A stretch of 62,948 bases of DNA from contig CAZECR010000002.1 in assembly GCA_964510495.1 (NCBI GenBank), positions 13,767 to 76,714 on the forward strand, in the 5' to 3' direction. Positions 24,219-57,735 of the stretch are shown here, piece after piece (position 1 is the first letter of the stretch; each line of letters starts with the position of its first letter). The notes under the pieces are model-generated. The model did no database searches and was not told the DNA's origin. It was given only the letters and a program-made list of their open reading frames with translations. The position numbers were made by a program, and so were the translations under genes. Source of the stretch: an uncultured Gammaproteobacteria bacterium. Lineage in GTDB: Bacteria; Patescibacteriota; Patescibacteriia; Magasanikbacterales; GWA2-37-8.

Positions 24219-24222
24219 AGTA

Positions 24223-24900: not shown

Positions 24901-24917
24901 ATCAGACGTCTAACGCA

Positions 24918-25523: not shown

Positions 25524-25551
25524 AGAAAATAACTAGGCAATAATCTAATCT

Positions 25552-26157: not shown

Positions 26158-26181
26158 AACGATGAAATTTAAAGATAAATT

Positions 26182-27682: not shown

Positions 27683-27693
27683 AAGGTTATATG

Positions 27694-28986: not shown

Positions 28987-28993
28987 ATATGTG

Positions 28994-29530: not shown

Positions 29531-29531
29531 A

Positions 29532-32061: not shown

Positions 32062-32079
32062 ATGTACAAAATTAGAAGT

Positions 32080-33414
32080 TTAAAACTGCTTTTTATAGAC
32101 AAAATCAACTAATCCTTTTTCTTTAAACCGCACTAAATAAGTATACACTTTTTCAAACGATACTTCATGCTTAATCGCGATATCAAGAATAGACATATTT
32201 TCTTCCATGTACCGAAAGACATGATTCATGAGCTCGTTCCAGCGCTTTTGATCTTCTGCTCGATCCTCGGTTCGTTGCGACGGATCATCCCCCGGCGATA
32301 TATACAGATCATACTTTGGATTGCTGAGCGCGATCAAACCAGTAAACTTTCTTTTTAAGAAACAATCTTTTTCAATAATATCCACCATACTCATAATTAT
32401 ACGATCGGTTTCTTCCAGACGTCCTTCATTCATGAGATTGATATTATCCGAATCAAGATGGTATTCGGGATACAAATAATCCATGGACTGACAACGTGAA
32501 ACTGAAATCATCGGCACTTCATAACCAGGGGCCTCCCATACACATTCGTCATTTCCTAAAAATTTTCGATACCCCGCGCTCCAATAACCAACAGCTTCGT
32601 GCTTAAGCACGTGATGACCAACCTTATCAATATAGCTAGTACCGGTAAAACTTTCTTGTAGAGAAAAAACCGGATTATCATGACCCACCATCTCCATAAA
32701 GATTCCGAGTTTCATTTTTTTGATTTCTTGCGGATCTTTATTGGCCAAGTAAAAAACCGTACCCATATGCTCTGGAGCGACGACGAGGCGATATGTGTAC
32801 CTCGTTTTGCGTTGCAATAACTTTTCCATGACACTCATAAAAACAACATACCCGGCTGGCCCGTCATTCAACTGAGCAGCATGACAATTATGAGCGTTAA
32901 AGATAATCATATCTTCACACTCACCCTGGTGAGTTATTTCGAGCACCTTCATTTCTCCATCGGCGTGTTCGGTAACGAGCTCTACTTCGTAATCCCCTTC
33001 TTCGAGTTTCAAAAACTGGTTATGCGGCATTGAAAAACCCCAGTTCTGTATAAATGGTTTATAATACAAATCACAATGATACACGATATTATCCGGTTGT
33101 TCAGCCGAATAAAAAAGATGCTTTTTTAATTCTTCTAAAGAGACAGTGCCGGTAAAAGACTGTGAGGAACCAATCACCGCTAGCGGATGCTGCATACCAT
33201 CATAGACCACCTTACCGTTCTTCTTGATGAGTGCTTTTTTAACTTCCCACTTTTTCGGAACATACCAACCATTAAATTCAGCACCTGACGGATATTTAAA
33301 AACCGTAAAAGGAAGCTGCGCGCACAAAATTTTATTTTGCTCATCAGCACCATCAGAAACTGGCGTAGTGAATAAGCCGTTAATTTTTCGTAAAACGTCC
33401 ATTTTTGCTTCCAT
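32080..33414 (-). CDS. aminopeptidase-like domain protein of polysaccharide loci (DUF4910/DUF2172-type), C-terminal winged-helix-like tail
   Basis: 444 aa. The assignment rests on remembered family features (N-terminal PFTVFKYPSGAEFNGWYVPKKWEV region, about 440 aa, glycan-locus context). Needs HMM confirmation. Confidence 0.5.
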   Translation of the reverse strand: MEAKMDVLRKINGLFTTPVSDGADEQNKILCAQLPFTVFKYPSGAEFNGWYVPKKWEVKKALIKKNGKVVYDGMQHPLAVIGSSQSFTGTVSLEELKKHLFYSAEQPDNIVYHCDLYYKPFIQNWGFSMPHNQFLKLEEGDYEVELVTEHADGEMKVLEITHQGECEDMIIFNAHNCHAAQLNDGPAGYVVFMSVMEKLLQRKTRYTYRLVVAPEHMGTVFYLANKDPQEIKKMKLGIFMEMVGHDNPVFSLQESFTGTSYIDKVGHHVLKHEAVGYWSAGYRKFLGNDECVWEAPGYEVPMISVSRCQSMDYLYPEYHLDSDNINLMNEGRLEETDRIIMSMVDIIEKDCFLKRKFTGLIALSNPKYDLYISPGDDPSQRTEDRAEDQKRWNELMNHVFRYMEENMSILDIAIKHEVSFEKVYTYLVRFKEKGLVDFVYKKQF

Positions 33415-33421
33415 ATGTCTT

Positions 33422-34450
33422 TTAATTAGTAGCTACAAGCCCGCTGGCACCATAGACAGCCTTAAAAGTTGCAGCTTTTTCAAGGACTACACTCGAAGTA
33501 TAAAACCGATCGCCAAGGCAGAGGGCATCTTTAATATCTACACCTTGTTCATTCACTACGTGCGCTATTTTTAACAAAGCCCCGACCGTAGCGACATACA
33601 CCGCTTCAACATCTTTCCGCACAATTAAACCTGCTGTAAAGGGGTGGTACGATTCTTCACCTGACATTTTTTCACAGTCTTTAAGTACCACTTGAATATT
33701 TTGTATCGTAGTTGCAGCGCCCGCGTACGGCTCATCAAACGCACAAATAAAACGATAAATATCACTTCCTGACCACGCCCAATTAATAAAACCGTTAGTG
33801 GCAGTATGCAAAAAGGGATAGTAGGAACTGTGCGATTCATCTAGCCCAGTAATTTCAAAATTTTTACCATCTTTAATTTCCTGTAAAAATTCATTCAAAA
33901 AATCAAGTTCAATTCCTAACTGATAATTAATATAGTCAATCGGCTTTCTTAAGCCCACCGGAAAATCAAAGGCTCTCATTTTAACAATTTCACCTTTATG
34001 AAACATTTTTTCTCCCCCATAAATGATTTGTAGGTTTACGGACCCGTGATTATTACCATGTAAAATCCTCCAGGTATGATGTGCGCCCCCGCGGTACATA
34101 GGCAAATCTATACTCATGAAATCCAAAAAGTATCTGGGTTTAAACAGCCTGGCTGTTTCCTCGGTGAAGGGCCAAGCCGCTCCCATGCCGATTCCAAGGA
34201 CGTTTCCAACCACTTCTCGGCGCAAGTGCTCGTCATTGTTTATATCTTCTGACTCATAGTACCGCACACCTGCTTTTTTGAGTACCTGGCGGAGAGTCAT
34301 ATCGTACATTTCTTCTTCTAGATGACGCTTCGCACTAAAAACAACAACTTCCACACTTAAGGTAGCGTGTGCACGTTTTATAAATTCACTCACCAGATAC
34401 GATCCGCCGAGTACAATTATTTTTTCAATTTTTTCGTACCGAAATTCCAT
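33422..34450 (-). CDS. formyltransferase-like protein (Fmt/ArnA N-domain type)
   Basis: 342 aa. It starts with a Rossmann-like strand (KIIVLGGSYLVSEF). DLPMYRGGAHHTWRIL occupies the place of the HxSLLPxxRG block. The match is degenerate. Confidence 0.45.
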   Translation of the reverse strand: MEFRYEKIEKIIVLGGSYLVSEFIKRAHATLSVEVVVFSAKRHLEEEMYDMTLRQVLKKAGVRYYESEDINNDEHLRREVVGNVLGIGMGAAWPFTEETARLFKPRYFLDFMSIDLPMYRGGAHHTWRILHGNNHGSVNLQIIYGGEKMFHKGEIVKMRAFDFPVGLRKPIDYINYQLGIELDFLNEFLQEIKDGKNFEITGLDESHSSYYPFLHTATNGFINWAWSGSDIYRFICAFDEPYAGAATTIQNIQVVLKDCEKMSGEESYHPFTAGLIVRKDVEAVYVATVGALLKIAHVVNEQGVDIKDALCLGDRFYTSSVVLEKAATFKAVYGASGLVATN

Positions 34451-34462
34451 AATTTGAAAAAA

Positions 34463-35572
34463 TTAACGTGCTGCAAAAAATTCTTTAATTAAATCACAGA
34501 CATAGCTAACGTCGCGACGGCTAAGATGGGTGAATAATGGCAGTGTTATGGCCGTCTCATGATACAGGTCAGCAACCGGACAGGCTACTTTTGTATATCC
34601 TAATTTTTTATAAAATGGATGCGAGTATACCGTTGGGTAATGAAAATTAACACCAACACCTTTCTTTTGCAAAAAATGATACAGGGGCAAACGCTGACGA
34701 GAATCACTCGTACGAATAACATAGATATGCCAGCCGCTATAGGTGTGGGAGAGTTCGAGGGGCAGGATTATGTTTTTTTCTTTCGACAATAGTTGGTTAT
34801 ATAATTTAACGAGACTGTGGCGGGACTTGATAAAGGAGTTGATTCTCGTAAGCTGACTTCTGCCAAGCGCCGCCTGAAGATCATTAAGCCGATAATTGTA
34901 ACCCAGCTCACTCATAACATTAAAACCATTCTTATCTTTAACAAGACCATGGCTTCGAAGTAGTTTCATTTTGGTATAGAGAGCTTTATCGTTAGTCACG
35001 ATCGCCCCACCTTCTCCTGTAGTAATTGCCTTAACCGGATGAAAACTAAAAACCGTCGCCGCACTTTTAAGGTTACCGACGGGCTTGCTTTTATATCGCG
35101 CACCAAGGGCATGACAGGCATCTTCGATAACAACGAGGTGATACTTCTTGGCGATACGATAGATGGCATCCATCTCACAAGGATGACCAAAAATATGAAC
35201 GGGGACAATTGCTTTGGTTTTTTTGGTAATCAGCTCTTCGATCTTAGTTTCATCAATATTGCAGGTGTCGCTTCTAATATCGCAAAAAACAGGTTTAGCG
35301 CCAATTGCAACCAGCATATTAGCAGTACCCACAAAAGTATTAGCAGTGGTGATTACTTCGTCACCAGACTTAATTCCAGCGGCTAGATAGGCAGCATGTA
35401 ACGCCACCGTTCCATTAGCTACAGCGACTGCATACTTGGCTCCTGTGTACCGTGCAAGCGCCTCTTCAAACCGACTAACCTCCGGACCCTGGGTCAACCA
35501 ATCAGAACGTAGTACTGTTGAAACACGTTGAATATCTTTTTTGGATATCGATTGATGCCCGTAAGGAATCAT
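34463..35572 (-). CDS. pseC: UDP-4-amino-4,6-dideoxy-N-acetyl-beta-L-altrosamine transaminase-like (DegT family)
   Basis: MIPYGHQSISKKDIQRVSTVLRSDWLTQGPEV is the typical PseC N-terminus. FSFHPVKAIT carries the lysine. ATGA overlap with pseB. Confidence 0.8.
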   Translation of the reverse strand: MIPYGHQSISKKDIQRVSTVLRSDWLTQGPEVSRFEEALARYTGAKYAVAVANGTVALHAAYLAAGIKSGDEVITTANTFVGTANMLVAIGAKPVFCDIRSDTCNIDETKIEELITKKTKAIVPVHIFGHPCEMDAIYRIAKKYHLVVIEDACHALGARYKSKPVGNLKSAATVFSFHPVKAITTGEGGAIVTNDKALYTKMKLLRSHGLVKDKNGFNVMSELGYNYRLNDLQAALGRSQLTRINSFIKSRHSLVKLYNQLLSKEKNIILPLELSHTYSGWHIYVIRTSDSRQRLPLYHFLQKKGVGVNFHYPTVYSHPFYKKLGYTKVACPVADLYHETAITLPLFTHLSRRDVSYVCDLIKEFFAAR

Positions 35573-36549
35573 ACATTTTCAAGTAATTCTTTAAACTCTT
35601 CAATTGTGAGCCAAACAGCATTGGAATCACTTGCAAATTGAAAATTCTCAGGAACCTTAGGAAGAGCAGCGTATTTCTGGTAACGCTCCGAAGTAGTATC
35701 TAAAAACTCAGGCAAAACTATATAATGATTTTCTGTTTCGACAGCATGCCGTGATTCCTGATTTGTTAACAAAACTTCGTGCAACTTTTCCCCAGGACGG
35801 ATACCGCTGATAACCTTTTTAGCCGCCGGGACAAGCGCTTCAAACAAGTTTTTAACGAGCTGACTAGGAGCTTTCGGAATAAAAATTTCACCACCCTCAC
35901 CCTCTTTAAGCGCCTTCATAACGAGCTCCATACTCTGCTTGAGAGTTAACCAGAACCGGCTCATGCGTTCATCAGTAATATAGACCGTATCAACATCTTT
36001 CTTCTTAAGAAGTGTTTCAACAATACTACCGCGACTACCGATAACATTACCGTAGCGCACGACAACAAATTTGCATCGGTTAGCAGAGTATGAATTTGCT
36101 CCAATAAATAATTTTTCGGCGCACAATTTGGTGGCTCCGTATAAATTTACCGGGTGTGCCGCTTTATCAGTTGAAATCAGCACTGCTTTCTCCACCCCCT
36201 GATCAATACAAGCTTCCAAAATATTTTGCGTTCCTAGTATATTGGTTTTTACCGCCTCAAAAGGATTGTATTCGAGTGCCGGAACCTGCTTAAGGGCTGC
36301 AGCATGAATTACTACGTCTACACCACAGAGTGCACGCTGCAATCGCGGCAAATCACGCACATCGCCAATAAAAAAGCGCAACCTTGGATCAACGATCTCT
36401 TTCTCCATCTGGAATTGCTTGAGCTCGTCACGACTAAAAACAATCAACTTTTTCAAGTTAAAATTCTCAAGCAAATACTTGGTGAAACTCTTGCCAAAAG
36501 AACCTGTTCCACCGGTAATTAATACTGTTTTGTTATCAAGGCTAAACAT
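35569..36549 (-). CDS. pseB: UDP-N-acetylglucosamine 4,6-dehydratase (inverting), PseB/FlaA1 type
   Basis: KTVLITGGTGSFGKSF, LKKLIVFSRDELKQ, YGATKLCAEKLF. 326 aa. Confidence 0.9.
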   Translation of the reverse strand: MFSLDNKTVLITGGTGSFGKSFTKYLLENFNLKKLIVFSRDELKQFQMEKEIVDPRLRFFIGDVRDLPRLQRALCGVDVVIHAAALKQVPALEYNPFEAVKTNILGTQNILEACIDQGVEKAVLISTDKAAHPVNLYGATKLCAEKLFIGANSYSANRCKFVVVRYGNVIGSRGSIVETLLKKKDVDTVYITDERMSRFWLTLKQSMELVMKALKEGEGGEIFIPKAPSQLVKNLFEALVPAAKKVISGIRPGEKLHEVLLTNQESRHAVETENHYIVLPEFLDTTSERYQKYAALPKVPENFQFASDSNAVWLTIEEFKELLENV

Positions 36550-36554: not shown

Positions 36555-37796
36555 TTATTTAAGTACAATCAAATTTCTAATTTGCCGGGTTTCAGGCATG
36601 CTATAAAATTTGCCAGCTTTGGAAACTTCATCGAACAGATAAAAGCCCCCGTTCAGCGAGATATAATTTTTAATACCTTTTAACTTATCAAAATAGCGGC
36701 TCTCGCTCTGCCCAACATAGAAATACTCACCATCATGAGCAAGCCCGCGAATGAAACCAGAAAATTCTCCAACAATTCTTTGATTACCACGATACAGGAT
36801 GCTGCGCATACTATCGAGATAAAAAAGTTCTGAGCCGATAAATTTGGGACTATGTGGCATCCAGGCATTGGTTATTAATGGACGACGCACAGCATAGTCA
36901 TCAAGGTCAATTTCCATGATTCCCCCATCGTAGACACCCCAAGACCAATTACCGGAATGAGAAAAAAGTGAAACGTACAAATAACGATCCGTAACGAACA
37001 AATCGTTAATGTGGTGCATGTCTTTTTTATAATAAGTATATTTATCTGAAATCATGATATCAGTGACATGATCGAGTGTTTCAGATGAATATACGGAAAT
37101 TTTATCTAATCCAGATTTGGCGATAAAAATAAGTTTTCGCTCCGGGCTATAGGCCATACCGTGTGATTTTGCATCCATTTCAAAACCAAATTCTTTAACG
37201 ACAGTGTAATCATTTTTTGAAACCACTAGGCCACCACGAACCTCATCTAATACATAATACTTGTCACCAGCATCAATAATCTGGTGCAACGTGCCTTCTA
37301 AAACCTTGGTCGATTGCCTAAGCGCAATGTCATAGAGATACAAACCGCCGCCACCACTCTTACCTTTGTCGAGTTCCGTGTAAATTTTGTGATCAGCAGA
37401 GCAAATAAGGAGTTTTGTCGTACACGCGTCAATATCACCTAAAATTTTCAGATTATTTAACGCCGGTGTGCAACAAAAATCCGCGCCCGGCTTTAAACCA
37501 TAACTGACTAGCTGTGGAATAATTGATTTATAAGCACCGCTCGTAATAACAATATAAATATCAGCATCTTTCTTTTTTAATACTTCCGGATCGAATACAT
37601 CAAATTCACTTTTTTTATCCGTGACCATGTATTTTTTACCCTTGCGCGACTCACTATTGTCAACAATATAGGCCAAGTTTGGGTTAGAGTATTGAAAGGT
37701 CTTTTCAAACCAATCATCCGCAACACCAAAAAAAACAACTCGCTTGTCTTTGACGCTTTGATTAAATTCTTTCCAGTCTTGCCAAAGGGTAAACAT
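36555..37796 (-). CDS. two-domain protein: N-terminal Rossmann-like module plus C-terminal TIGR03032/DUF4915-like (beta-propeller-like) domain; function unknown
   Basis: WMPHSPKFIGSELFYLDS and GFIRGLAHDGEYFYVGQSESRY resemble the conserved blocks I remember for TIGR03032. MHHINDLFV resembles an H-x-N motif. Needs HMM confirmation. Confidence 0.45.
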   Translation of the reverse strand: MFTLWQDWKEFNQSVKDKRVVFFGVADDWFEKTFQYSNPNLAYIVDNSESRKGKKYMVTDKKSEFDVFDPEVLKKKDADIYIVITSGAYKSIIPQLVSYGLKPGADFCCTPALNNLKILGDIDACTTKLLICSADHKIYTELDKGKSGGGGLYLYDIALRQSTKVLEGTLHQIIDAGDKYYVLDEVRGGLVVSKNDYTVVKEFGFEMDAKSHGMAYSPERKLIFIAKSGLDKISVYSSETLDHVTDIMISDKYTYYKKDMHHINDLFVTDRYLYVSLFSHSGNWSWGVYDGGIMEIDLDDYAVRRPLITNAWMPHSPKFIGSELFYLDSMRSILYRGNQRIVGEFSGFIRGLAHDGEYFYVGQSESRYFDKLKGIKNYISLNGGFYLFDEVSKAGKFYSMPETRQIRNLIVLK

Positions 37797-37800: not shown

Positions 37801-38874
37801 TTATGAATTCGTAGAATTAGCTTGGATTAAAGATATATAGTCACGAGCAAACGCAGCATTGTCTCGTTCAAATTGGTCGGCCGAAAAATACTTAACCCCC
37901 CTAAAATTTTGAACAAAAGTGCCGGGAAAACCAGATTTGAAATGAGCGATCTGCAACTGCTTTTGATCGGGAAGAGAATCGTACTGGGCTGATGGCGTTG
38001 AAGGTTGTTCCATATCAACCAGACGAATGCCTTTATTTTTATAATACTCGAGTGCTGAGTAAATGAGCGCGTGGTACAGGGGAAGCCGATCATATTCGGG
38101 ATCATCAGCCGCCGAGCAGTACGCTGCCACATTGCCGTTATGCTCAAAATAGACATAGGCAATATCTTTTTCCTTATATTTAAGACCAAAGAGCGCCGCC
38201 TGTCCGTCGATCAATTTTTTAAACTGGAGGTCAAATGTTTCTTTGGGCCTTGTTACCCTACCGGAACAACGTCGATGGAGTTCGCGATATTCTTCATGGC
38301 TCTCATAGGACGGATTACTACTATCGATCGTAAAAATTGAGTACGCAGCATCATTCAAAATCCTTTTTATATTACGCCTGTGATTTTCCCTGCACTGTTT
38401 ATAAATATCGGGAACCGTCAAATCAACTACATAATTCAGTATCGAGGTATCCAAATAACCATACTCTTGTAAAAAATTATAATTGAAGCGATCGGTCTCG
38501 AGTGGATCAACTTGAAATAGCATCTTATCGACACGATGCTCCAGAGCGAGTTCGTCGATCAGTCTAAAAACATCCTTTTCAATAGCCTTATCGAGGATAA
38601 GGGGTGCGTCGACATAATCGCCAAGGCAGCTTACCGCACATACTTCTGCACTTTTTTCAATGGGCAAAAACACTCCGGCTAACGGTTTATTATTAACCAA
38701 ATACACAAAACTGGCGTTTACATAGTCCACGCCCTTTTCTTTCGCTGTCAAAGGATACGCCGCAAGGCTGGTCAGTAAATAACGCGGACTAGGCCTATAC
38801 TGATTAAGTATTTCCTGCCAATATGTACTGAATAAATCTGGTCGATCCCTTTCTAAAATAAGCTGTATCGACAT
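37801..38874 (-). CDS. FemAB-family / Acetyltransf_6-like (aminoacyl-tRNA-dependent transferase-like) protein
   Basis: 357 aa. CRENHRRNIKRILNDA (RxNIRKA-like) and IAHFKSGFPG (FKxGFG-like) blocks. First gene of the 30-gene train. Confidence 0.5.
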   Translation of the reverse strand: MSIQLILERDRPDLFSTYWQEILNQYRPSPRYLLTSLAAYPLTAKEKGVDYVNASFVYLVNNKPLAGVFLPIEKSAEVCAVSCLGDYVDAPLILDKAIEKDVFRLIDELALEHRVDKMLFQVDPLETDRFNYNFLQEYGYLDTSILNYVVDLTVPDIYKQCRENHRRNIKRILNDAAYSIFTIDSSNPSYESHEEYRELHRRCSGRVTRPKETFDLQFKKLIDGQAALFGLKYKEKDIAYVYFEHNGNVAAYCSAADDPEYDRLPLYHALIYSALEYYKNKGIRLVDMEQPSTPSAQYDSLPDQKQLQIAHFKSGFPGTFVQNFRGVKYFSADQFERDNAAFARDYISLIQANSTNS

Positions 38875-39085: not shown

Positions 39086-39114
39086 TTGACCCTAATTTTG
39101 TTGTAGGATATACT
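39086..39114 (+). promoter_or_regulatory. candidate sigma70-type promoter of cysD-cysNC-cupin
   Basis: TTGACC (39086-39091), 17-nt spacer, TATACT (39109-39114). Lies about 33 nt upstream of the cysD ATG. Confidence 0.55.
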
Positions 39115-39147: not shown

Positions 39148-40056
39148 ATGGTCGAAGCCTACAATCTCAATTATTTAAAGCAACTCGAAGCTGAAAGTAT
39201 CCATATATTCCGGGAAATGGCCGCTGAATTTAAAAATCCGGTCATTTTGTATTCAATCGGAAAAGATTCAGCTACCCTGCTTCGCCTAGCCGAAAAAGCC
39301 TTCGCTCCTGGCAAGATCCCCTTTCCCCTTCTCCATATTGATACCGGTTTTAAATTCAAGGAAATGATCGCCTTTCGCGATTATTATGTTAAAAAGATTG
39401 GCGCAAAATTACTGGTAGAGAAAAATGAATCCCCCGAAGCTCAGGCGCTTGGACCGGAAGAAGCTCGAACAGACATCTATATTTATCACAAAAAAACAAA
39501 ACCGCTCTTAGACGCTATTAAACGAAATAACTTTGATGCCGCTGTTGGTGGTGCCCGTCGTGAAGAAGAAAAGTCCCGAGCTAAAGAGCGTGTTTTTTCC
39601 TTCCGCACAGAACTTGGCGGCTGGGATCCAAAAAACCAACGTCCTGAACTTTGGTCGCTCTACAATACTCGAATCAAAGAAGGACAGAGTGTCCGTGTTT
39701 TCCCCCTCTCCAACTGGACCGAAGCTGACATCTGGGCCTATATTCTGATGGAAAAAATTGAAATCGTGCCCCTGTACTTTGCGGAAAAAAGAAAAGTATT
39801 TCAGCGCAACGGCATTTTACTTCGCGTGGACGAATTTAACCAACCAAAAGAAGGTGAGGAGGTCATCGAAATGATGAGTCGCTACCGAACACTCGGCTGT
39901 TCGCCATCGACTGGAGCCGTAGCTTCTACCGCAACCACTTTGGAAGAAATATTAGAGGAAGTGCTCGTGGCCCGTAAATCAGAACGTGAAAACCGAGCGA
40001 TTGATTACACATCCGATTCTTCGATGGAACAAAAAAAGAAAGAAGGCTACTTTTAA
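39148..40056 (+). CDS. cysD: sulfate adenylyltransferase subunit 2
   Basis: [17 protein letters not shown]-loop. 302 aa. Canonical CysD/NodP sequence throughout. Confidence 0.95.
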
Positions 40057-40059
40057 TAT

Positions 40060-41895
40060 ATGAATGGAGCTGAAAAAAAATATAATCGAGATATCGAACT
40101 TTTAACCTTTGTAACAGCAGGCAGTGTTGATGATGGAAAATCGACGCTTATTGGGCGGTTACTCTACGATTTAGACCAGATTTATGACGATCAGATCGAG
40201 GCTGTTAAAAAAGCGGACAAGGTAGAAGGCGAAATGGACTTTTCGCTGTTTACCGACGGCTTATCAGCCGAACGAGAACAAAAAATCACTATCGATGTTG
40301 CCTATCGCTATTTTTCTACCAATAAAAGGCGATTCATTATTGCGGATGTACCCGGTCACGAACAATATACCCGCAATATGGCTACCGGCGCATCTAAAGC
40401 AGCGGCCGCGCTTATTTTGATTGATGCCAGAAAAGGTTTATTGCCCCAGACAAAACGTCATTTATTTATCGCCACGCTGTTTGGCATTCCCCATATTGCC
40501 ATCATAATTAACAAGATGGACATGGTAGGTTACGATGAGAATATTTTTGAGTCTATCAGACAAGAATGTATCGACTTTACTTCAAAATTACAAATGTACG
40601 ACCTCCAATTTATCCCGGCCTCTTCGCTCAAAGGAGATATGATCGTGAGCCGCGGTGAAAACATGCCTTGGTATGGCGGCCGCACAGTCATGAACTACCT
40701 TGAAAACATTGAGATTGCGAGTGATAGGAATCTGATTGATTTCCGCTTGCCGGTTCAGTACATAATTCGGCCCGACCAAGATTTTCGAGGGTATGCCGGA
40801 ACAATCGAGGGAGGTACTATTTCCGTTGGCGAAACCGTAAAAATACTACCTTCAAACCGGACAACAACAGTCAAAGAAATTTTTGTTGCTGGAGTAAAAC
40901 GAGAATATGCATTTAATCCCGAAGCTGTTGTTGTAGCACTGAACGACGAACTGGATATCAGCCGGGGCGATATGATCGTACGGCCTAACAACCTGCCTGA
41001 AATTTCGAACCAGCTCGATGCCATGATTTGCTGGTTTAGCGAAACACCACTCCAAAAAGGTAAGCGATACCTACTAAAACACATGACGACTACGGTACCA
41101 GTCTTTGCTACTGATCTAAGGTATAAAATTGACATCAAAACGCTCCACCGAGACAAAGGCACCGAGTTACAGTTTAATGATATTGGACGAGTCAGTTTAG
41201 AAACGCTCAAACCCTTATTTTTTGATTCGTATACCCAGAATAAAAACACAGGATGCTTTATCATCATAGATGAAATGACCAACGACACTGTTGGAGCAGG
41301 TGTTATTAAAGAGAAAGTAGAGGCTGGAGAGAGCCAAGAAAAGCTTGCTGAAAACAGTGAAAAAACACAGAATATCGGCCACGTTCTATGGTTTACTGGG
41401 TTATCAGGCGCTGGCAAAAGTACTATCGCTGAAAAAGTAGCTACTGAACTAAAAAAACAAGGCGTGCCGTTTGAACATTTGGACGGCGACACAGTTAGAG
41501 AACTGTTAACAGCACATTTAGGTTTTAGCCATGAAGACAGAAAGAAAAATGTTGAAATTGTTGCTTTTGCAGCCAAACTTCTAGCCAAGCACGGCGTAAT
41601 TGTTTTGGTCACGATGATTTCTCCTTATCAGGAACAGCGAGAACAGTTGAAAAATAAGATCGGGAATTGCAGTGAAATTTTTGTTAATGCTCCGCTCGAA
41701 GTATGCGAAGCGCGCGACGTAAAGGGTTTGTATAAAAAGGCACGAGCCGGAATCCTGGAGATGTTCACCGGAATAGACCACCCATACGAAGCACCAAGTA
41801 ATCCTGACCTAGAATTAAACACCGACCAAGAGTCTATCGAACAATCCGCAGCAAAGGTTTTGGAACATCTCAGAAGTAAATCAAAGTCTCATTAA
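40060..41895 (+). CDS. cysN: bifunctional sulfate adenylyltransferase subunit 1 (GTPase) / adenylylsulfate kinase (CysN-CysC fusion, NodQ type)
   Basis: G1 GSVDDGKSTLIGRL and DVPGHEQY. C-terminal APS-kinase P-loop WFTGLSGAGKSTIA. 611 aa. Confidence 0.95.
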   Translation: MNGAEKKYNRDIELLTFVTAGSVDDGKSTLIGRLLYDLDQIYDDQIEAVKKADKVEGEMDFSLFTDGLSAEREQKITIDVAYRYFSTNKRRFIIADVPGHEQYTRNMATGASKAAAALILIDARKGLLPQTKRHLFIATLFGIPHIAIIINKMDMVGYDENIFESIRQECIDFTSKLQMYDLQFIPASSLKGDMIVSRGENMPWYGGRTVMNYLENIEIASDRNLIDFRLPVQYIIRPDQDFRGYAGTIEGGTISVGETVKILPSNRTTTVKEIFVAGVKREYAFNPEAVVVALNDELDISRGDMIVRPNNLPEISNQLDAMICWFSETPLQKGKRYLLKHMTTTVPVFATDLRYKIDIKTLHRDKGTELQFNDIGRVSLETLKPLFFDSYTQNKNTGCFIIIDEMTNDTVGAGVIKEKVEAGESQEKLAENSEKTQNIGHVLWFTGLSGAGKSTIAEKVATELKKQGVPFEHLDGDTVRELLTAHLGFSHEDRKKNVEIVAFAAKLLAKHGVIVLVTMISPYQEQREQLKNKIGNCSEIFVNAPLEVCEARDVKGLYKKARAGILEMFTGIDHPYEAPSNPDLELNTDQESIEQSAAKVLEHLRSKSKSH

Positions 41896-41900
41896 GCAAT

Positions 41901-42323
41901 ATGCAAGGCGTTACCGTACAGACGATGAATCCAATTTCAACTTCTGCTAAAGGAGAAACTTTTGAGCTGTTTAAGGGTCTGCCCGGTCAACAGATCACTT
42001 TATATCACCGTAATAAGGGTGTTAGTTTTGGCAACCATTTCCACAAAGGTGTTGACCAGGCCAAAGATCCAGAATACTTTTTTCTCATTTCCGGACAGGT
42101 CACAGCTTCATTTTATAACGGCTTAACCGGTGAACGGGAGACTTTGGAGATCGGTCAGAGTGACCTGCTAACCATTAATAAAAATATTTACCACTCTCTT
42201 ACTGCCCTTACCAAAGTGACTTTTATTGAATATCGCAGTCAGGTATTTGACGAAAAGAAAAATGATTGTTGGCCGCTCGAGGAGTACGAGGCATATTTAG
42301 AAACACTAAAAAAACAGAGATAA
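41901..42323 (+). CDS. cupin-fold protein (sugar isomerase/epimerase-like), function uncertain
   Basis: 140 aa. FGNHFHKG and YFFLISGQV are cupin motifs. Same HFHK block as the edge-truncated cupin at 62626-62948. Confidence 0.55.
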   Translation: MQGVTVQTMNPISTSAKGETFELFKGLPGQQITLYHRNKGVSFGNHFHKGVDQAKDPEYFFLISGQVTASFYNGLTGERETLEIGQSDLLTINKNIYHSLTALTKVTFIEYRSQVFDEKKNDCWPLEEYEAYLETLKKQR

Positions 42324-42336
42324 CTCTGTTTTTTTT
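42308..42336 (+). terminator. intrinsic terminator of the cysDNC-cupin operon
   Basis: AAAAAAACAGAG-ATAA-CTCTGTTTTTTTT. The stop codon lies in the loop and a T8 run follows. Confidence 0.6.
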
Positions 42337-42424
42337 AACACTGCATAGGGAATTTACTCCTCAGCTTTTGATTGTACACTTTTTTCAATATTCAATCCCC
42401 CTACTCGTTTCCTCAAGCTTATTT

Positions 42425-42473
42425 AAAAAAACGAGTAGTGGAGGGACTGAGGTCGCAACTGTCCGACCACTAC
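42425..42473 (-). terminator. candidate intrinsic terminator of the DUF2061-like gene
   Basis: The minus strand reads GTAGTGG...CCACTAC (7-bp stem with an inner GTCG/CGAC helix) followed by TCGTTTTTTT. Confidence 0.45.
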
Positions 42474-42520
42474 GTAACAGCTAAAAAGTGAACATCCTCG
42501 GCCAGGCGATTACAGGGAGA

Positions 42521-42721
42521 TCATTTTCTACCCCATTTCACCCTGCCCCAAAAGTACTCGTACAGATTGTGCACCACCAACTTGACACACACATCGATTG
42601 CTCCTGCACCCAAGGAGAAATCTAGACGTCGAGTTGCAGCAAACACAATAAGTGTGGTCATGAGGCTCCCAATGAACCTCCACAGGCTGGTTCGAATCAG
42701 TCTGCGCGTATGTGTTTCCAT
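42521..42721 (-). CDS. small membrane protein, DUF2061-like
   Basis: TSLWRFIGSLMTTLIVFAATR resembles the DUF2061 core. The ATG at 42721 is preceded by AGAGGG with a 6-nt spacer. The ORF-track start at 42793 is probably over-extended. Confidence 0.55.
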   Translation of the reverse strand: METHTRRLIRTSLWRFIGSLMTTLIVFAATRRLDFSLGAGAIDVCVKLVVHNLYEYFWGRVKWGRK

Positions 42722-44502: not shown

Positions 44503-45738
44503 ATGGTTTTCAACCGAGCCACTTATTTTACCAAACTTGCTTTGCATTATACAGAGCGGCAATGGCAAAAATACTTGGCCAAAAATTTTGCACACCATCT
44601 GGAGCAACGAATCAATATTCCAACCAAACATGATGCGCTCCGTGCAGCTATTGATTGGCTGTGTAACGCGCAAGACAACAATCGGGATGGTGGAATTAGT
44701 CGGGGCTTTAGTTTGGTATATGACCCTAAGTTTAATAAGACTGGTTGGCAACCTTCTTATCCTGAAACAAGCGGTTATATCATTCCCACCTTACTCCGAG
44801 CGGCTCAATTTCTTAAAGAGCCAAATCTGATCGAACGAACTAAAAAAATTGCTGCCTGGGAAATAAGTATTATGACTTCAGAAGGGGGAATTCCTGGCGG
44901 AAATATTGGAAAAGATCCGAAACCAGCCGTTTTTGACACGGGTCAAGTCATCCGAGGTTTTATTGCATTATTTGAAGAAACAAAAGATACGCTCTACTTA
45001 GATGCAGCAACGCGAGCAGCCAATTGGGTCTTAAAGAACGAATTTTCTAATACTGGACAATGGCTTGCACATAATGCCGACTCAGTAAACCCTACCACAA
45101 CGGTCTATAATATATACGCCATAGTTCCAATTGTTTATTTGGGACAGCTTACACACAACACTCTTTTTATTGATCTCGGTAAAAGAGTTGCCGAGTTTAC
45201 ACTGAAACAACAGAATGCGGTTGGCTGGTTTAAATATTGTGATTTTGAAGATAGAACGGATGCCTTACTCCATACGCTTGGGTATACCATCGATGGATTA
45301 TGGGATATTGGAATACTGCTTAATGAAGAAAGATACCTCACCGCAGCTCGCCTATCCGTAGACAATCTGCTACGGCACCTAGACTCAAAGGGCTTGCCCA
45401 AAGGACGTTTTAATAATATTTGGCAAACCACAGTTGACACATATTGTTTAACAGGAATAGCTCAAATTGCTATTACAGCGATTAAAATTAGAAGTAGATA
45501 CTCTGATCCCAGCTATACAGAATTTATTGAGCGTTCAATAGCTTTTCTTACGTCTAAGCAAAATATGACAGACCCCTCTTTTGGAGGTCTTGGAGCTCTA
45601 TGGGGCAGCTGGCCAATAAACGGAGACTACCAACCGTATCAGGCACTAAACTGGGCAGTGAAATATTTAACCGATCTCTTACTCATGCACCAACAAACAT
45701 CGAGCACAGCTTCTTTATCTTCAACATTTTTATTATGA
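44503..45738 (+). CDS. predicted (alpha/alpha)6-toroid protein (prenyltransferase / six-hairpin-like), function unknown
   Basis: 411 aa. Periodic helical repeats with aromatic/Gly turns (DGGISRGF, SGYIIPTLL, GGIPGG, TGQVIRGF, NAVGWF). Fold call only. Confidence 0.35.
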   Translation: MVFNRATYFTKLALHYTERQWQKYLAKNFAHHLEQRINIPTKHDALRAAIDWLCNAQDNNRDGGISRGFSLVYDPKFNKTGWQPSYPETSGYIIPTLLRAAQFLKEPNLIERTKKIAAWEISIMTSEGGIPGGNIGKDPKPAVFDTGQVIRGFIALFEETKDTLYLDAATRAANWVLKNEFSNTGQWLAHNADSVNPTTTVYNIYAIVPIVYLGQLTHNTLFIDLGKRVAEFTLKQQNAVGWFKYCDFEDRTDALLHTLGYTIDGLWDIGILLNEERYLTAARLSVDNLLRHLDSKGLPKGRFNNIWQTTVDTYCLTGIAQIAITAIKIRSRYSDPSYTEFIERSIAFLTSKQNMTDPSFGGLGALWGSWPINGDYQPYQALNWAVKYLTDLLLMHQQTSSTASLSSTFLL

Positions 45739-46829
45739 AGATTGTTCACATCGCTTGGCTTGGCGCTCAAAATTATGGAGATGACTTAATGGCTGAAGCA
45801 GTTCAAAATTATTTGAATACTCATTTTCAGATAGAAAAATACACCATCTGGTCGCAGGCACACCCAACCATTCATAAGAAATACACTTGGATATATCCCC
45901 CACTCTTAGGAAACCGTTTTAAACCCACCTTTTTCGAAAATCGTGCGCTTAAAAAAGCAGATCTTCTCCTCGTAGGCGGAGGATCAGTACTTCATTCCAG
46001 CGCGAGCTCCCTCTGGAAAGAACGAGGGATAGCTTTTTTTAAGCAAAATACTTCTGGAGCAGCTCTTGGCATCAATGTATCAGTTGGACCGTTTAAAACT
46101 ACGGCCGATGAAGCAGCTTGCAGTCGCGTACTTAAACTGCTTGACGCTTGCACATTTAGAGACAAGGCAAGCTTTGATTTTGCCTGCGCCCTCAATCTTC
46201 CTTATCAACCAGAATTAACATTTGATCTCGCCGCTTGCTATTTAGAAGACCAAAAAATTCTTCCACGCGAAAAGGTCGCTACCATAGGCACTATCGGCCT
46301 TACACTGCGGGAACCCGAACGAGCTGGGTATCAAGAAATATTTAATAACTATGTAGCACTTCTCAAACTCGTTTCAACAAAATACCCTTGCATACGACTC
46401 TTTTGTTTTTCGGGAGCACTTTCCAAGAATAATGAATTCGTTTTTTGTCAAAAACTATTAAACGCAGCTCAAATCAAAGCGCAAATCATTATCTATACCG
46501 GCAACGCACAGAGCTTTACTGAAGAGATCAAAAAATGTGATTTCTTTATTTCAACTCGTTTACACGGACTGATTGTTCCTTATCTTCTAAATATTCCATT
46601 CATTAGCTTGGCACACAAATCTAGTTCTGATCATAAAAAATTTGGTGATTTTAATGAATACATTCAACTTCCTAAAGACGTTCAATTCGAACAGGACAAT
46701 TTTACTCCTTCAGAAATTATACAGCGCATAGTACCCTATGAACTACCACACCAGACACCTTTTTTTGAATTAGCTAGAAAAAATTTTACAGTATTTAAAA
46801 AAAACCTCTATAAAGATCAACGCTTATGA
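45735..46829 (+). CDS. polysaccharide pyruvyl transferase (CsaB/WcaK family)
   Basis: MKIVHIAWLGAQNYGDDLM, LLVGGGSVLH, ISTRLHGLI. The ATG at 45735 forms an ATGA overlap with the upstream stop. The ORF-track start at 45600 is an over-extension. Confidence 0.75.
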   Translation: MKIVHIAWLGAQNYGDDLMAEAVQNYLNTHFQIEKYTIWSQAHPTIHKKYTWIYPPLLGNRFKPTFFENRALKKADLLLVGGGSVLHSSASSLWKERGIAFFKQNTSGAALGINVSVGPFKTTADEAACSRVLKLLDACTFRDKASFDFACALNLPYQPELTFDLAACYLEDQKILPREKVATIGTIGLTLREPERAGYQEIFNNYVALLKLVSTKYPCIRLFCFSGALSKNNEFVFCQKLLNAAQIKAQIIIYTGNAQSFTEEIKKCDFFISTRLHGLIVPYLLNIPFISLAHKSSSDHKKFGDFNEYIQLPKDVQFEQDNFTPSEIIQRIVPYELPHQTPFFELARKNFTVFKKNLYKDQRL

Positions 46830-48019
46830 CAGATCATTTCAAGCCACTCTGTCTGAGTTTCTGGGTACCACCAGTAGTGCGTCCCCAAGCTATTTTAATT
46901 GGCAAAATGATTCCGGAATGGATCAAGCAAGGAACTACTCCGACCATCGTAAGTTATGCCGGAGACACGGCTTGGGATATTGCTGCAACGAAGTATTCTA
47001 TTGATCAGTGGAAAATAAACAAATACGTTGCACGATTACCGATCGTGCCCAAAATTCTCAAAAATAAATATTCGGAACGCATTTTTCGAAGGCTTTGTGC
47101 AGTTGTGAAAAAAGAAAAACCTGATCTCATATTTTCTTTTGCCAACCCTCAAGACAGCAACATCTTCGGCGCGCGACTTAAAAAACATTTTGGCATTCCT
47201 TTTATTAGCCACTTTAGCGACCCTTGGGCTGACAATCCTTATTCTAACTGGAGCAATCATAAGCGAGCTGAAATAATCAAACTCGAACGTTTTATTATTG
47301 AACAAAGCGATAGAGTCGTTTTTACAAATATAGAGCTCCGTGATCTTGTACTACAAAAATTTCCAGCCAGCTGGAAAAATAAAACAGTGGTTATCCCTCA
47401 TTGTTTTGACGAAAAAGAATACCCGGCTCGAGTTAAAAACAACGAACCCTTTATTTTTAGCCATATCGGAGCTCTCTACGGGAAGCGAACCCCGGAATTT
47501 CTCTTTTTAGCACTGCAAGAACTTCTTAAAAATTCACCCAAACTTAGAGGAACATTCTGTCTAAAACTTGTAGGCGCAGCTAATAGCTACGCAGGCTACA
47601 CCGAAGCTCGAATTAAAGAAATGGCTAAAAAATATGGTTTGGCAGATCTTACTTCCATCATTCCTCCAGTAAGTTACACGGAAAGTCTTCGCTACATGAA
47701 ACAATCAGACTGTCTTATTGTTATTGATGCCGATATTGAAAACAGCCCTTTTTTGCCTTCTAAAGTAGTTGATTATGCGGGGAGCAAGACAGCGATACTT
47801 GGTATTACACCCAGCAACAGCCCGACCGATACTTTCCTTAAAGAATTGGGGCAAAAATGTTTTAACTACAAAGAAAAAAATACGCTGATCACTTACTTGC
47901 GAAAATTAATTCAAACTAAAACAGGCCCCGCATATAACGAGAAATTTCGCGCCAACTACTCTGTTGAAGCTACTTCCGCCAAGCTATTACAACTTTTTAA
48001 AGATTGTACCACTCTATGA
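46826..48019 (+). CDS. GT-B-fold glycosyltransferase (GT4-like)
   Basis: 397 aa with a two-domain GT-B layout. C-terminal FLPSKVVDYAGSKTAILG sits in the place of the E-x7-E block. ATGA overlaps at both ends. Confidence 0.55.
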   Translation: MTDHFKPLCLSFWVPPVVRPQAILIGKMIPEWIKQGTTPTIVSYAGDTAWDIAATKYSIDQWKINKYVARLPIVPKILKNKYSERIFRRLCAVVKKEKPDLIFSFANPQDSNIFGARLKKHFGIPFISHFSDPWADNPYSNWSNHKRAEIIKLERFIIEQSDRVVFTNIELRDLVLQKFPASWKNKTVVIPHCFDEKEYPARVKNNEPFIFSHIGALYGKRTPEFLFLALQELLKNSPKLRGTFCLKLVGAANSYAGYTEARIKEMAKKYGLADLTSIIPPVSYTESLRYMKQSDCLIVIDADIENSPFLPSKVVDYAGSKTAILGITPSNSPTDTFLKELGQKCFNYKEKNTLITYLRKLIQTKTGPAYNEKFRANYSVEATSAKLLQLFKDCTTL

Positions 48020-49098
48020 AAATCGCTTTAATTCTAGGCACGCGTCCGGAAATAATTAAAATGTCACCGCTTGTTCGTGCGTGTGAAAAGCATGCAATCG
48101 ACTACTTTATCCTACATACCGGTCAACATTATAATCATGAAATGGATCAACAATTTTTTGATGATCTTGAGCTGCCAAAGCCACGTTATAATCTGAACAT
48201 TGGTAGCAAACCGTATCACGAACAAATCGCAACAATGATTCAAAAAATAAGCGCCATTTTAATTAAAGAAAAACCTGTGGCAGTGGTTGTGCAGGGTGAT
48301 ACTAACACAGTCCTGAGCGGGGCTCTCGCAGCCAACAAACTTGGTATTATGGTGGTCCATCATGAAGCGGGATTACGGAGTTATGACCTCAAAATGTTAG
48401 AGGAGATAAATCGGACACTGACCGATCATATTAGTGACTATTTGTGCACACCCACTAAAGAGACAGCAAAACATCTGCGCGAAGAAGGAATTGCAAAAGA
48501 AAAAATATTCCTTAGCGGCAATACGATCGTTGATGCCGTTAAACAAAATTTACAATTAGCTGCCAAAAAATCAACTATTCTTAAACGTTTTAAGCTTGAA
48601 CCAAAAAAATATATTATTGCTACCGCTCATCGGGCTGAAAACGTTGATGATCCTGAGCGCTTGAACAAAGTACTGAGAGGACTTGAATTGGTTGCGGCAA
48701 GCACGGAGCTTCCCGTTATATATCCCATTCATCCAAGAACGCAAAAAAATATTAAAAAATTCAAACTAACTGTACCCGTTGGAGCAACCATTGTTGCGCC
48801 GCTTGGATATCTAGATTTCCTATTGCTTGAAGCTAACGCCGCGCTGATTATTACCGACTCAGGCGGCATGCAAGAAGAAGCATGTATTCTTCGTGTTCCT
48901 TGTGTAACTATCAGAGATACCACCGAACGCCCCGAAACACTTCACCTGGGTATTAATATTCTTGCCGGGGTAGAACCTGAACAAATACAGAAAGCAGTTG
49001 AAAAAATGCTTCGTTTTAAAAAGACCAAATGGATTAATCCATTTGGTCGGGGTGATGCTGGAGAAAAAATCATCCAATACATCAAAAGATGTATTTAA
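48016..49098 (+). CDS. wecB: UDP-N-acetylglucosamine 2-epimerase (non-hydrolysing)
   Basis: MKIALILGTRPEIIKMSPL, HHEAGLRS, ITDSGGMQEEA. The ATG at 48016 forms an ATGA overlap. Confidence 0.9.
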   Translation: MKIALILGTRPEIIKMSPLVRACEKHAIDYFILHTGQHYNHEMDQQFFDDLELPKPRYNLNIGSKPYHEQIATMIQKISAILIKEKPVAVVVQGDTNTVLSGALAANKLGIMVVHHEAGLRSYDLKMLEEINRTLTDHISDYLCTPTKETAKHLREEGIAKEKIFLSGNTIVDAVKQNLQLAAKKSTILKRFKLEPKKYIIATAHRAENVDDPERLNKVLRGLELVAASTELPVIYPIHPRTQKNIKKFKLTVPVGATIVAPLGYLDFLLLEANAALIITDSGGMQEEACILRVPCVTIRDTTERPETLHLGINILAGVEPEQIQKAVEKMLRFKKTKWINPFGRGDAGEKIIQYIKRCI

Positions 49099-49099: not shown

Positions 49100-50872
49100 T
49101 TATAACTCGTACAAAAATAAACCTTCAAAAGCACCGATTAATTTTAGTTTTGGTAAAGACTCCATAACAACAGAACTCAATTCATTTTCAGAAACCAGGT
49201 AGTTTACTTTGTACTTGTACACTTCATCGGAAAAATTATTTTTGAGGAAATCTCGATATTCATTCGGCAGCTGTTTTCGGACCTCAATTAAACGCGACGA
49301 TAATCTTGAAGAAAATAATTCATCCCAGTTCTCAAAAAAATAATTGATCACTTCTCCATCATGCTGATCCAAGTATGTTTCGATTCCTTCGGAACGAACC
49401 CCTCGTAGTCTCATCAGTAAAAAGAAATTATGTTTTTGACGATCATCGGGTACAGCATAGAAACGCTCGGTATTGGCAACATATAAGTTACACCGTGTGA
49501 ATGCACGGATCATAAGGCTATACTGCTTATTAGGCTCAAGAGGGAGGACTACGCACGGATCAGGTGCATGCGTATTTAACCAATCAAAAACTACACGATA
49601 TTTTTGTATTTCCTTAAACTCTGCAAGATTAGAGCGATATGTTGTTGTTGCTGCCAGACCATAGGCCAAGGAACACATGATACCTAACAGCGAAACAGCG
49701 TACCAAACCTGTATGCGCCACAATTTAAGAAGACGTTCACCCAACAAGGTCATTATGACCATCATGAGTGGGATAGTATATTGAACAAAATGTGGATACC
49801 ACACCACTCTTCCAGTAATAATTTGCTGATTAAAAACCAACCAACTTGCTCCTAACATATAGACACTCCAATTCCAGGCATCATCTTCGAGTAAAACTTT
49901 TTTTCCTTGTTTTAAATATCGCACTAATGAAACAAGGATAAAGACGATTGTTACTGCTAAGACTAGCCAATTAACTATCGGAGCATGACTATAGAATAAA
50001 CCATTACGCTGCGACAATAGGGCTCCTTGAGCAGAATGCAGAGACGTAAACACTCGCAGCAAGATTGGCAAGCTCATTAAAAAAGCAATCACTCCAATTA
50101 AAATAATTTTTTTACTCAAATGGTATTCGCGTCGCAAAAGTGTCCCAAAAAAGATAACACCTACTAAGGCTAAAATCATGCCCCAAGCAAAAAAATATCC
50201 AATACTCAGCGTTATTGCTAGTCCACAAATTACAAACAAGTATTTTGTGTTTACAGCATTCTTATCGAGAATCTTTTTTAAGAGTAACAAAAAAGTAAAT
50301 ACTAAAAGCGCCCCTGTAACTGGATTAACAGGCCTTGTCCACACTATAGCATGGAAGCCGGGCGACCCTTGCAACCAATGAAGCACCGACCTCACATCAA
50401 CCAAATCATATCCTAGAGTAACCAAAAAAGCTGCTAATAGCGGTGCCAACTTATCAACCCATAAAGAGCTTCGGTCACCAAATTGATAGACAAAAAAATA
50501 AATTAAAAGAAATAATACTGACGGAAACAAAAATTTAGCCAGAAGGAGTGTCGCTGATAAAGAGGTTTGCGTGAGGATATTAAGTGCAGCATACCAATAT
50601 TCACCAAAGGGCGGTATGATTGGTTTTGCATCTTTATACTCATATAAAAATGGCGAACCAAGCCACCCATGTCCCTCGACTACTTCCCTAACTCGAGCCA
50701 TGTACCCAGGTTCATCATCCATAAACACATAATGAACTCCTCGATACTCATTACCAAGCGCGCGCTGTGCTAACAGGTACGGCGCCACTGAAATAGCCCC
50801 AACTCCCAGGGCACAAACTAATACTAAAGCATGTTTTGTCAGAATTGTTCTAATCTTTTTTAAAAAAAACAT
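49100..50872 (-). CDS. polytopic membrane protein with C-terminal soluble domain; GT-C-like glycosyltransferase candidate
   Basis: 590 aa with more than 10 hydrophobic helices. An acidic motif (VFMDDEPGY) sits in the first loop after TM1, as in GT-C enzymes. No sharper family call. Confidence 0.4.
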   Translation of the reverse strand: MFFLKKIRTILTKHALVLVCALGVGAISVAPYLLAQRALGNEYRGVHYVFMDDEPGYMARVREVVEGHGWLGSPFLYEYKDAKPIIPPFGEYWYAALNILTQTSLSATLLLAKFLFPSVLFLLIYFFVYQFGDRSSLWVDKLAPLLAAFLVTLGYDLVDVRSVLHWLQGSPGFHAIVWTRPVNPVTGALLVFTFLLLLKKILDKNAVNTKYLFVICGLAITLSIGYFFAWGMILALVGVIFFGTLLRREYHLSKKIILIGVIAFLMSLPILLRVFTSLHSAQGALLSQRNGLFYSHAPIVNWLVLAVTIVFILVSLVRYLKQGKKVLLEDDAWNWSVYMLGASWLVFNQQIITGRVVWYPHFVQYTIPLMMVIMTLLGERLLKLWRIQVWYAVSLLGIMCSLAYGLAATTTYRSNLAEFKEIQKYRVVFDWLNTHAPDPCVVLPLEPNKQYSLMIRAFTRCNLYVANTERFYAVPDDRQKHNFFLLMRLRGVRSEGIETYLDQHDGEVINYFFENWDELFSSRLSSRLIEVRKQLPNEYRDFLKNNFSDEVYKYKVNYLVSENELSSVVMESLPKLKLIGAFEGLFLYEL

Positions 50873-55575: not shown

Positions 55576-55577
55576 AT

Positions 55578-57732: not shown

Positions 57733-57735
57733 ATC

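Follow-up and report, generated by a model that had tools for sequence, protein, structure and literature searches.

In rhizobia, NodP and NodQ act together with NodH to sulfate the Nod factor, and NodPQ is encoded in addition to a housekeeping set of cysDNC genes. Here we analyze a comparable gene set on contig CAZECR010000002.1 (80.3 kb; assembly GCA_964510495.1) of a bacterium of the candidate phyla radiation (CPR), using a stretch of 62,948 nucleotides (nt), referred to below as the window and numbered from its first letter. The set consists of cysD, a cysN-cysC fusion (cysNC; cysDNC for the two genes together) and a cupin gene, and is predicted to produce 3'-phosphoadenosine 5'-phosphosulfate (PAPS) from sulfate via adenosine 5'-phosphosulfate (APS). 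As in the rhizobial NodPQ system, a CysD-like subunit and a CysN-CysC fusion are encoded amid glycoconjugate genes rather than among genes for reductive sulfur metabolism. However, the rhizobial system belongs to a different lineage and acts on a different type of glycan, the one in the window being of the pseudaminic-acid type, and the canonical sulfotransferase NodH is encoded alongside NodPQ, whereas none is found in the window.

In Mycobacterium tuberculosis, CysD and CysNC combine three activities in two polypeptides, and the APS-kinase domain marks the PAPS, or sulfation, branch of the pathway (PMC4373884). The window is predicted to encode these three activities, likewise divided between two polypeptides. 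In the mycobacterium, part of the APS goes to CysH for cysteine synthesis, and the sulfotransferases of the other branch are the known Stf enzymes, whereas neither branch is seen in the window. In Vibrio sp. KMM 8419, a capsule cluster carries a second copy of cysNDC together with three annotated sulfotransferases, and the capsule has been chemically proven to be sulfated; the co-occurrence of PAPS genes and sulfotransferases in a polysaccharide cluster has been termed a hallmark of sulfated polysaccharide synthesis (PMC11641403). Both this cluster and the window embed PAPS genes among surface-polysaccharide genes, but the Vibrio cluster has its three sulfotransferases and proven chemistry, whereas the window contains no sulfotransferase and is known from its genes alone. 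PAPS genes in glycan clusters are already known, and what is new here is their occurrence in a poorly known CPR lineage.

A complete sulfate-activation operon within a glycan island

The genes cysD, cysNC and the cupin gene follow each other in this order on the plus strand, with gaps of 3 nt and then 5 nt, and form one operon. The initial annotation of the window, made from the letters without database searches, had described this operon, and the three open reading frames (ORFs) as well as their families were confirmed. CysD matches PAPS_reduct of Pfam (E = 3.6e-45) and the NCBIfam model TIGR02039 (444.6 bits, cutoff 396.6), and its ATP-pyrophosphatase PP-loop lies at residue 36. CysNC matches GTP_EFTU (1.4e-40) and APS_kinase (5.7e-57) and exceeds the cutoffs of both the bifunctional CysN/CysC model NF004035 (802 bits versus 715) and the CysN model TIGR02034 (536 bits versus 336). 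The G1, G3 and G4 motifs of its CysN part (GSVDDGKS, DVPGH and NKMD) are intact, as are the motifs of the APS kinase, namely, Walker A GLSGAGKS, DGD, MISP, KARAG and FTGID. By gene identity, intact motifs and operon structure, the cysDNC unit is complete, and the operon is predicted to be a dedicated sulfate-activation unit that forms APS and PAPS. Its divergence from a long glycan train was likewise borne out: the train starts at 38874, runs along the minus strand through about 30 genes and encodes a pathway of the pseudaminic-acid type.

We consider it somewhat probable that the operon supplies PAPS for sulfation of the glycan made by the island, and that the gene of the sulfotransferase lies outside the window. 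Sulfate and ATP would be turned into APS by CysD together with the CysN GTPase, and the fused CysC kinase would phosphorylate APS, yielding PAPS. A sulfotransferase in the cytoplasm would then transfer the sulfate (this enzyme is most probably of the canonical P-loop type, with its gene at another place in the genome) to form esters on the surface glycan of the island, which would contain a pseudaminic-acid-type sugar, or on a surface protein modified with it. The by-product, 3'-phosphoadenosine 5'-phosphate (PAP), would be cleared by a CysQ-like phosphatase encoded in the island. We infer the use of PAPS in glycan sulfation, as well as the location of the sulfotransferase, from the intact kinase domain, the co-transcription with a putative sugar enzyme, the recurrent neighborhood of glycan genes and the presence of canonical sulfotransferases in two relatives.

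The phosphatase had been noted in the glycan train as a member of the inositol monophosphatase (IMPase)/CysQ superfamily. The gene is real and is the last of the sugar-synthesis train, followed by a 376-bp gap. CysQ (TIGR01331) is its best NCBIfam match, at 158 bits under a cutoff of 228.8; its metal motifs are present, and orthologues with 43-46% identity lie near cysD or cysNC in two of the relatives described below (L005 and L008). A CysQ role is suggested by these matches and neighborhoods.

Reductive sulfur genes and sulfotransferases in the window

Pfam scans took in every ORF of at least 117 aa and both ORFs cut by the window ends. No member of the sulfotransferase, cysH, sulfite reductase or sulfate permease families was found among these ORFs, and no cysteine synthase is present in the 63-kb window. 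A six-frame scan for [KR]xG[ST][ST] loops recovered only two cytidylyltransferases and no loop of the PAPS-binding type elsewhere in the window. Furthermore, the sulfotransferase of the relative L005 had no match in the window in tblastn, nor did those of L005 and L010 match any window ORF in blastp. The lack of reductive genes, sulfate permease and PAPS-binding loops reported in the initial annotation was confirmed by these scans, and the profile search for sulfotransferases that it had called for returned no ORF.

Two ORFs that could have hidden such enzymes were set aside. The PP-loop ORF at 30916-32061, considered as a cryptic cysH on account of a weak PAPS_reduct match (E = 0.069), is a WbuX N-acetyl-sugar amidotransferase (357 bits versus 203). 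The only sulfotransferase-sized ORF that lacked a family match, at 54712-55575, is a PhyH dioxygenase, as all 47 of its 47 aligned homologues match PhyH.

Genomic contexts of cysDNC in CPR relatives

We compared eight genomic contexts of CPR CysNC (L005, L006, L007, L008, L009, L010, L011 and L094), which include contig SRR22388088 of the Logan collection (L005), Candidatus Andersenbacteria GCA_023131785.1 (L010) and Candidatus Magasanikbacteria GCA_002716765.1 (L009). The nearest CysNC proteins are 57-64% identical to that of the window, and the named ones belong almost exclusively to Candidatus Magasanikbacteria, Andersenbacteria, Falkowbacteria, Peregrinibacteria or the "Patescibacteria group". 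The relatives of two other proteins of the window, DUF4915 and the cupin, likewise point to CPR. The exact CysNC protein is not on record; a metagenome scan with the GDP-mannose dehydratase encoded near the right end of the window recovered relatives of at most 69% identity, and a scan of genome contigs none above 53%.

The initial annotation had proposed conserved linkage as a check, and this linkage was found: cysD-cysNC or cysNC alone lies amid glycan genes in six of the eight contexts (L005, L007, L008, L009, L010 and L094), at positions that differ from one island to another. In L005 and L010, whose CysNC proteins are 60-62% identical to that of the window, cysD-cysNC is surrounded, as in the window, by glycosyltransferase, DegT and methyltransferase genes; L005 shares the orthologous IMPase and L010 the DUF2061 gene. 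Unlike the window, both encode a canonical sulfotransferase 2-6 kb upstream of cysD, of the Sulfotransfer_1/3 families in L005 (loop GRSGTT) and of Sulfotransfer_3 in L010 (loop PRTGTT), and L005 additionally carries Rrf2 and TauE genes.

The gene order of the island itself is kept in two genomes, represented by L012 and L007 on one contig and by L013 and L094 on another. In these syntenic relatives, cysD-cysNC comes behind the epimerase gene or immediately follows that of a KpsC-like transferase, whereas the operon of the window is inverted and diverges from the train. The linkage of cysDNC to glycan genes has thus survived rearrangement, which argues for a functional tie. Downstream of cysNC in L094 (L094:11882-13862) are genes for a 404-aa thymidylate-kinase-like P-loop protein and a 258-aa protein, neither of which has a homologue in the window; the latter was read as APH-like from HGD...IDW motifs, with no supporting Pfam match. 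In addition, in 2 of 80 unrelated metagenome loci of GDP-mannose dehydratase (GMD), L067 and L085, a cysN or cysNC homologue adjoins the GMD gene, and these may be further instances of PAPS genes in glycan clusters.

Several observations weigh against the sulfation of the island's glycan. No sulfotransferase is encoded in the 63 kb of the window, and none was found in the two syntenic relatives, in 43 kb of contiguous sequence in one and in 43 kb with an unseen gap of 7 kb in the other (gap at 55653-62733 of ENA contig k141_4362067). For the IMPase, the score stays under the CysQ cutoff, and 22 kb separate its gene from cysD. In L006 and L011, the neighbor of cysDNC is an ABC transporter of the NMT1 type, and glycan genes are absent from the surroundings. 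At the end of a glycan train in L009, cysD-cysNC is immediately preceded by the gene for a 222-aa CysH of the APS-reductase type (8388-9056; CC...CxxC and ECGLH motifs). Genes for Rrf2 regulators, a family with a role in cysteine metabolism, adjoin cysDNC in L005, L007 and L011 and could fit ordinary sulfur regulation. Finally, our literature search found no paper on sulfation, or on chemically shown sulfated glycans, in CPR bacteria.

A number of these observations favor general sulfur activation, in which a reductase of the cysH type, encoded at another site of the genome, would receive APS or PAPS and yield sulfite for cysteine or other uses. The position of the operon in a glycan island would then merely reflect the small size and dense packing of CPR genomes. 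The CysH of L009 shows that at least one CPR bacterium can make sulfite, and the L006 and L011 contexts, the latter with Rrf2 as well, and the sulfotransferase-free window point the same way. We nevertheless regard general activation as unlikely. An APS reductase needs no APS kinase, yet the intact kinase domain is conserved in all CPR relatives seen, and a linkage to glycan genes in most contexts, at varied positions, is hard to credit to chance. Moreover, L005 and L010 encode canonical sulfotransferases close to cysD, the 63 kb are free of reductive genes, and CPR bacteria generally lack amino-acid biosynthesis. The initial annotation had proposed that the island makes a sulfated surface glycan; the complete cysDNC unit, the conserved linkage and the sulfotransferases of L005 and L010 partly support this proposal, whereas the cysH of L009 leaves room for an assimilatory or sulfite-making role in the lineage.

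The adjacency of cysH and cysDNC inside the glycan cluster of L009, together with the several nucleotide-sugar enzymes of the short-chain dehydrogenase/reductase (SDR) type in the window, also raises a route from activated sulfate through sulfite to a sulfonated sugar of the sulfoquinovose type, or to another sulfonate, in the glycan. This route appears very improbable here, given that the window contains no cysH and that none of its SDR enzymes, which are RmlB (above cutoff), RmlD-like, TviC/GalE-like, PseB and GMD, resembles sulfoquinovose synthase.

The modules that flank cysDNC in the relatives comprise Rrf2 with a TauE-family permease (L005:7822-9049 and L007:11973-13192), an NMT1-type ABC transporter (L006:6542-9081) and an NMT1-type ABC transporter with Rrf2 (L011:484-3412). 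They are possible modules for the uptake of sulfate or sulfonate or for its control; no Rrf2/TauE or NMT1-type module is present in the window.

Candidate proteins within the island

Five ORFs had been called unassigned in the initial annotation and put forward as potential members of a new sulfotransferase family. No positive evidence for such an activity emerged, and four of them now fall into folds or families unrelated to sulfotransferases: the cupin, DUF4915, the KpsC-like transferase and the ORF at 55578-56618, which is a GFO/IDH/MocA oxidoreductase (Pfam GFO_IDH_MocA). The fifth, at 44503-45738, gave weak matches only, all to α/α-toroid families.

The structural model of DUF4915 combines an N-terminal Rossmann-like domain with a six-bladed beta-propeller. 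An arylsulfotransferase-like propeller was considered and rejected, since the top 50 Foldseek matches are generic YWTD and BtuG propellers and include no sulfotransferase. The gene occupies the same position in L012 and L013, so that it lies just upstream of PseB in three CPR islands. The family (about 410 aa, 115 homologues) extends over CPR, Bacteroidetes, Desulforapulum, Planctomycetes, Aliarcobacter and Virgibacillus, and its invariant residues N264, D265, D290, H315, R350 and D389 suggest an enzyme. A literature search for DUF4915 found nothing.

The KpsC-like protein is 61% and 49% identical to the products of genes located 0-3 kb upstream of cysD in L094 and L007, respectively. KpsC-like transferases with the HP motif normally use nucleotide-activated donors, and the protein of the window probably transfers a CMP-activated nonulosonic acid. 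The 590-aa membrane protein is 35% identical to the product of an L013 gene, and its L005 homologue is encoded directly downstream of the canonical sulfotransferase.

These proteins bear on the prospect that the sulfotransferase is encoded in the island after all but has a non-canonical fold, being DUF4915, the KpsC-like protein, the 590-aa membrane protein or DUF4910, all of which are common to the three pseudaminic-acid-type islands with cysDNC. Three cysDNC-bearing islands of 43-63 kb contain neither a sulfotransferase domain nor a PAPS-binding loop, the KpsC-like gene is always 0-3 kb from cysDNC, and in L005 the homologue of the membrane protein is encoded right behind the sulfotransferase. 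However, a non-canonical fold is suggested by absence only, as no candidate has a positive sign of PAPS binding, and each has a simpler role in a known fold class, the KpsC-like protein being the only evident CMP-sugar transferase. DUF4915 is, moreover, widespread in other phyla, and the sequence seen includes neither the 7-kb gap of one relative nor the remainder of any of the genomes. We therefore find an in-island enzyme of this kind quite unlikely. From the three independent islands that lack a P-loop sulfotransferase, one may go further and propose that cysDNC-bearing pseudaminic-type islands of CPR contain a sulfuryl transferase that draws on PAPS or APS and has a fold new to sulfation, with DUF4915 and the KpsC-like protein as candidates; in this general form, too, the proposal is quite unlikely.

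The cupin and the borders of the operon

The cupin matches the cupin domain of Staphylococcus aureus Cap5F in profile comparison (E = 1.9e-4, residues 14-127), but reaches the cutoff of no Pfam or NCBIfam model. The AlphaFold2 (AF2) model has a pLDDT (predicted local distance difference test) of 84 and finds its best Foldseek matches in CapF, QdtA, FdtA and RmlC. The predicted fold is common to the cupin domain of S. aureus CapF and to the QdtA/FdtA ketoisomerases, but the protein of the window stands alone at 140 aa and is only about 21% identical to CapF in the Foldseek alignment. In its modeled fold, it resembles nucleotide-sugar epimerases or isomerases of the 4-keto type. A sulfotransferase role was rejected given the jelly-roll fold of CapF and QdtA. 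Six homologues were found, none of them downstream of cysNC in the eight relatives. The one examined, 55% identical, has a formyltransferase gene on one side and an aminotransferase gene on the other, in a glycan train that is free of cysDNC in the 15.8 kb seen, and a role as a cysDNC-specific partner was rejected on these grounds. A 99%-identical copy is present on P0236, a Logan contig of 8.9 kb from another sequencing run, which indicates the same or a sister strain in a second sample.

The initial annotation had described a near-consensus promoter and a terminator belonging to the operon. A promoter-like site with 10 of 12 matching positions does exist upstream of cysD, but the region contains 9 such sites compared with 8.3 in shuffled sequence, so that the site is weak evidence for a promoter. 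No match to a riboswitch or another regulatory RNA at the Rfam gathering threshold was found upstream of cysD or elsewhere in the window, and the matches at E <= 1 were at chance level. Two stable hairpins occupy the convergent gap 3' of the operon. The one that overlaps the cupin stop codon has a folding energy of -11.8 kcal/mol on the plus strand (z = -6.0) and -13.1 kcal/mol on the minus strand (z about -5 to -6 over both), and a stronger one follows it.

Beyond the hairpins, the small membrane protein described as DUF2061-like and convergent on the operon is indeed a member of DUF2061; its ORF remains open beyond the ATG, up to a TTG at 42793. The DUF2061 gene adjoins cysNC both here, in convergent orientation, and in L010 (L010:11917-12126), where it is directly 3' and co-directional. 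The shared neighborhood could reflect a conserved tie to sulfate activation; in the literature that mentions DUF2061, we found no pointer to sulfur metabolism.

Other genes of the island

The features of the window are collected in Table 1. Among the genes of the train, PseB and PseC exceed the cutoffs of their models (TIGR03589, 434 bits versus 407.75; TIGR03588, 446.5 bits versus 423.5), whereas the NeuB-family synthase, at 312-345 bits, stays under both equivalog cutoffs. The train also holds two CTP_transf_3 proteins and two GNATs, and the PseG-like ORF (20433-21503) has weak Epimerase_2 matches only. The FemAB-like protein at the head of the train is 54% identical to the product of the gene upstream of DUF4915 in L012.

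Table 1. Positions of the sulfate-activation operon and of other features in the window
Feature	Position	Strand	Basis
IMPase-family phosphatase, CysQ-like, 264 aa	16515-17309	-	Inositol_P 1.5e-50; DPLDGT and WD motifs
Acetyltransferases, two methyltransferases, WbqC, PIG-L, TIM-barrel, DegT, PseG-like, two CMP-transferases, GNAT, GFO/IDH/MocA	17313-26613	-	
PseB, PseC, formyltransferase-like, DUF4910, WbuX amidotransferase, HisH/HisF-like, GNAT, aminotransferase, NeuB/PseI-type synthase	26618-36549	-	
DUF4915 protein, Rossmann-like domain and six-bladed beta-propeller	36555-37796	-	Model pLDDT 95, Foldseek
FemAB-like acyl/aminoacyl transferase, heading the divergent train	37801-38874	-	Profile matches
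Promoter-like site TTGACC-17-TATACT	39086-39114	+	10/12 positions; 34 nt upstream of cysD start
cysD, ATP sulfurylase small subunit, 302 aa	39148-40056	+	TIGR02039 above cutoff, PP-loop SIGKDS
cysN-cysC fusion, GTPase subunit and APS kinase, 611 aa	40060-41895	+	NF004035 above cutoff, motifs intact
Cupin, 140 aa, CapF C-terminal/QdtA/FdtA-like	41901-42323	+	Profile and Foldseek of AF2 model
A/T-flanked hairpin overlapping cupin stop codon	42308-42335	both	Terminator-like in either direction
Strong hairpin between cupin and DUF2061 genes	about 42400-42458		-31.6 kcal/mol, z = -5.5
DUF2061 small membrane protein, 66 aa from ATG at 42721	42521-42721	-	Pfam 3.6e-9
KpsC-like transferase with HP motif, 508 aa	42971-44497	+	KpsC match E = 1e-4
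Putative α/α-toroid protein, pyruvyl transferase, GT4, UDP-GlcNAc 2-epimerase	44503-49098	+	
Polytopic membrane protein, 590 aa, no Pfam family	49100-50872	-	Pfam scan
PhyH Fe(II)/2-oxoglutarate dioxygenase (287 aa) and GFO/IDH/MocA oxidoreductase (346 aa)	54712-56618	+	

The pyruvyl-transferase ORF, listed as 45600-46829, overlaps the upstream gene by 139 nt, and its domain begins at residue 58; its true start is thus probably the ATG at 45735. Tandem pairs of paralogues are formed by the methyltransferases (24918-26157) and the CMP-transferases (18912-20436), and two asparagine-synthase-type amidotransferases lie about 5 kb apart (51752-53599 and 58408-60264). The gene of ribosomal protein L27 stands alone on the plus strand amid glycan genes (10786-11058), and a RodA/FtsW gene is located within the minus-strand train (9142-10269). 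At the left end of the window, a cut minus-strand ORF (2-1177) encodes a membrane protein of at least 392 aa with no family; the 1.2 kb in which no ORF had been listed are explained by this ORF running off the window end. The right end (approximately 62640-62948, minus strand) encodes the C-terminus of another cupin-like protein.

Implications

If the sulfotransferase is an ordinary enzyme encoded elsewhere in the genome, the operon is simply another case of a known arrangement. At the same time, the islands lack a recognizable sulfotransferase in all three genomes seen, which narrows attention to a few well-defined proteins that are conserved but uncharacterized. Much of bacterial diversity belongs to the CPR, and the majority of these bacteria are thought to be attached to the cells of a host. 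Very little has been learned of the chemistry of their surfaces. From a conserved supply of PAPS within glycan islands, one would expect their surface glycans or glycoproteins to be sulfated and strongly anionic. Surfaces of this kind could affect attachment to the host, recognition by phages and the binding of metals.

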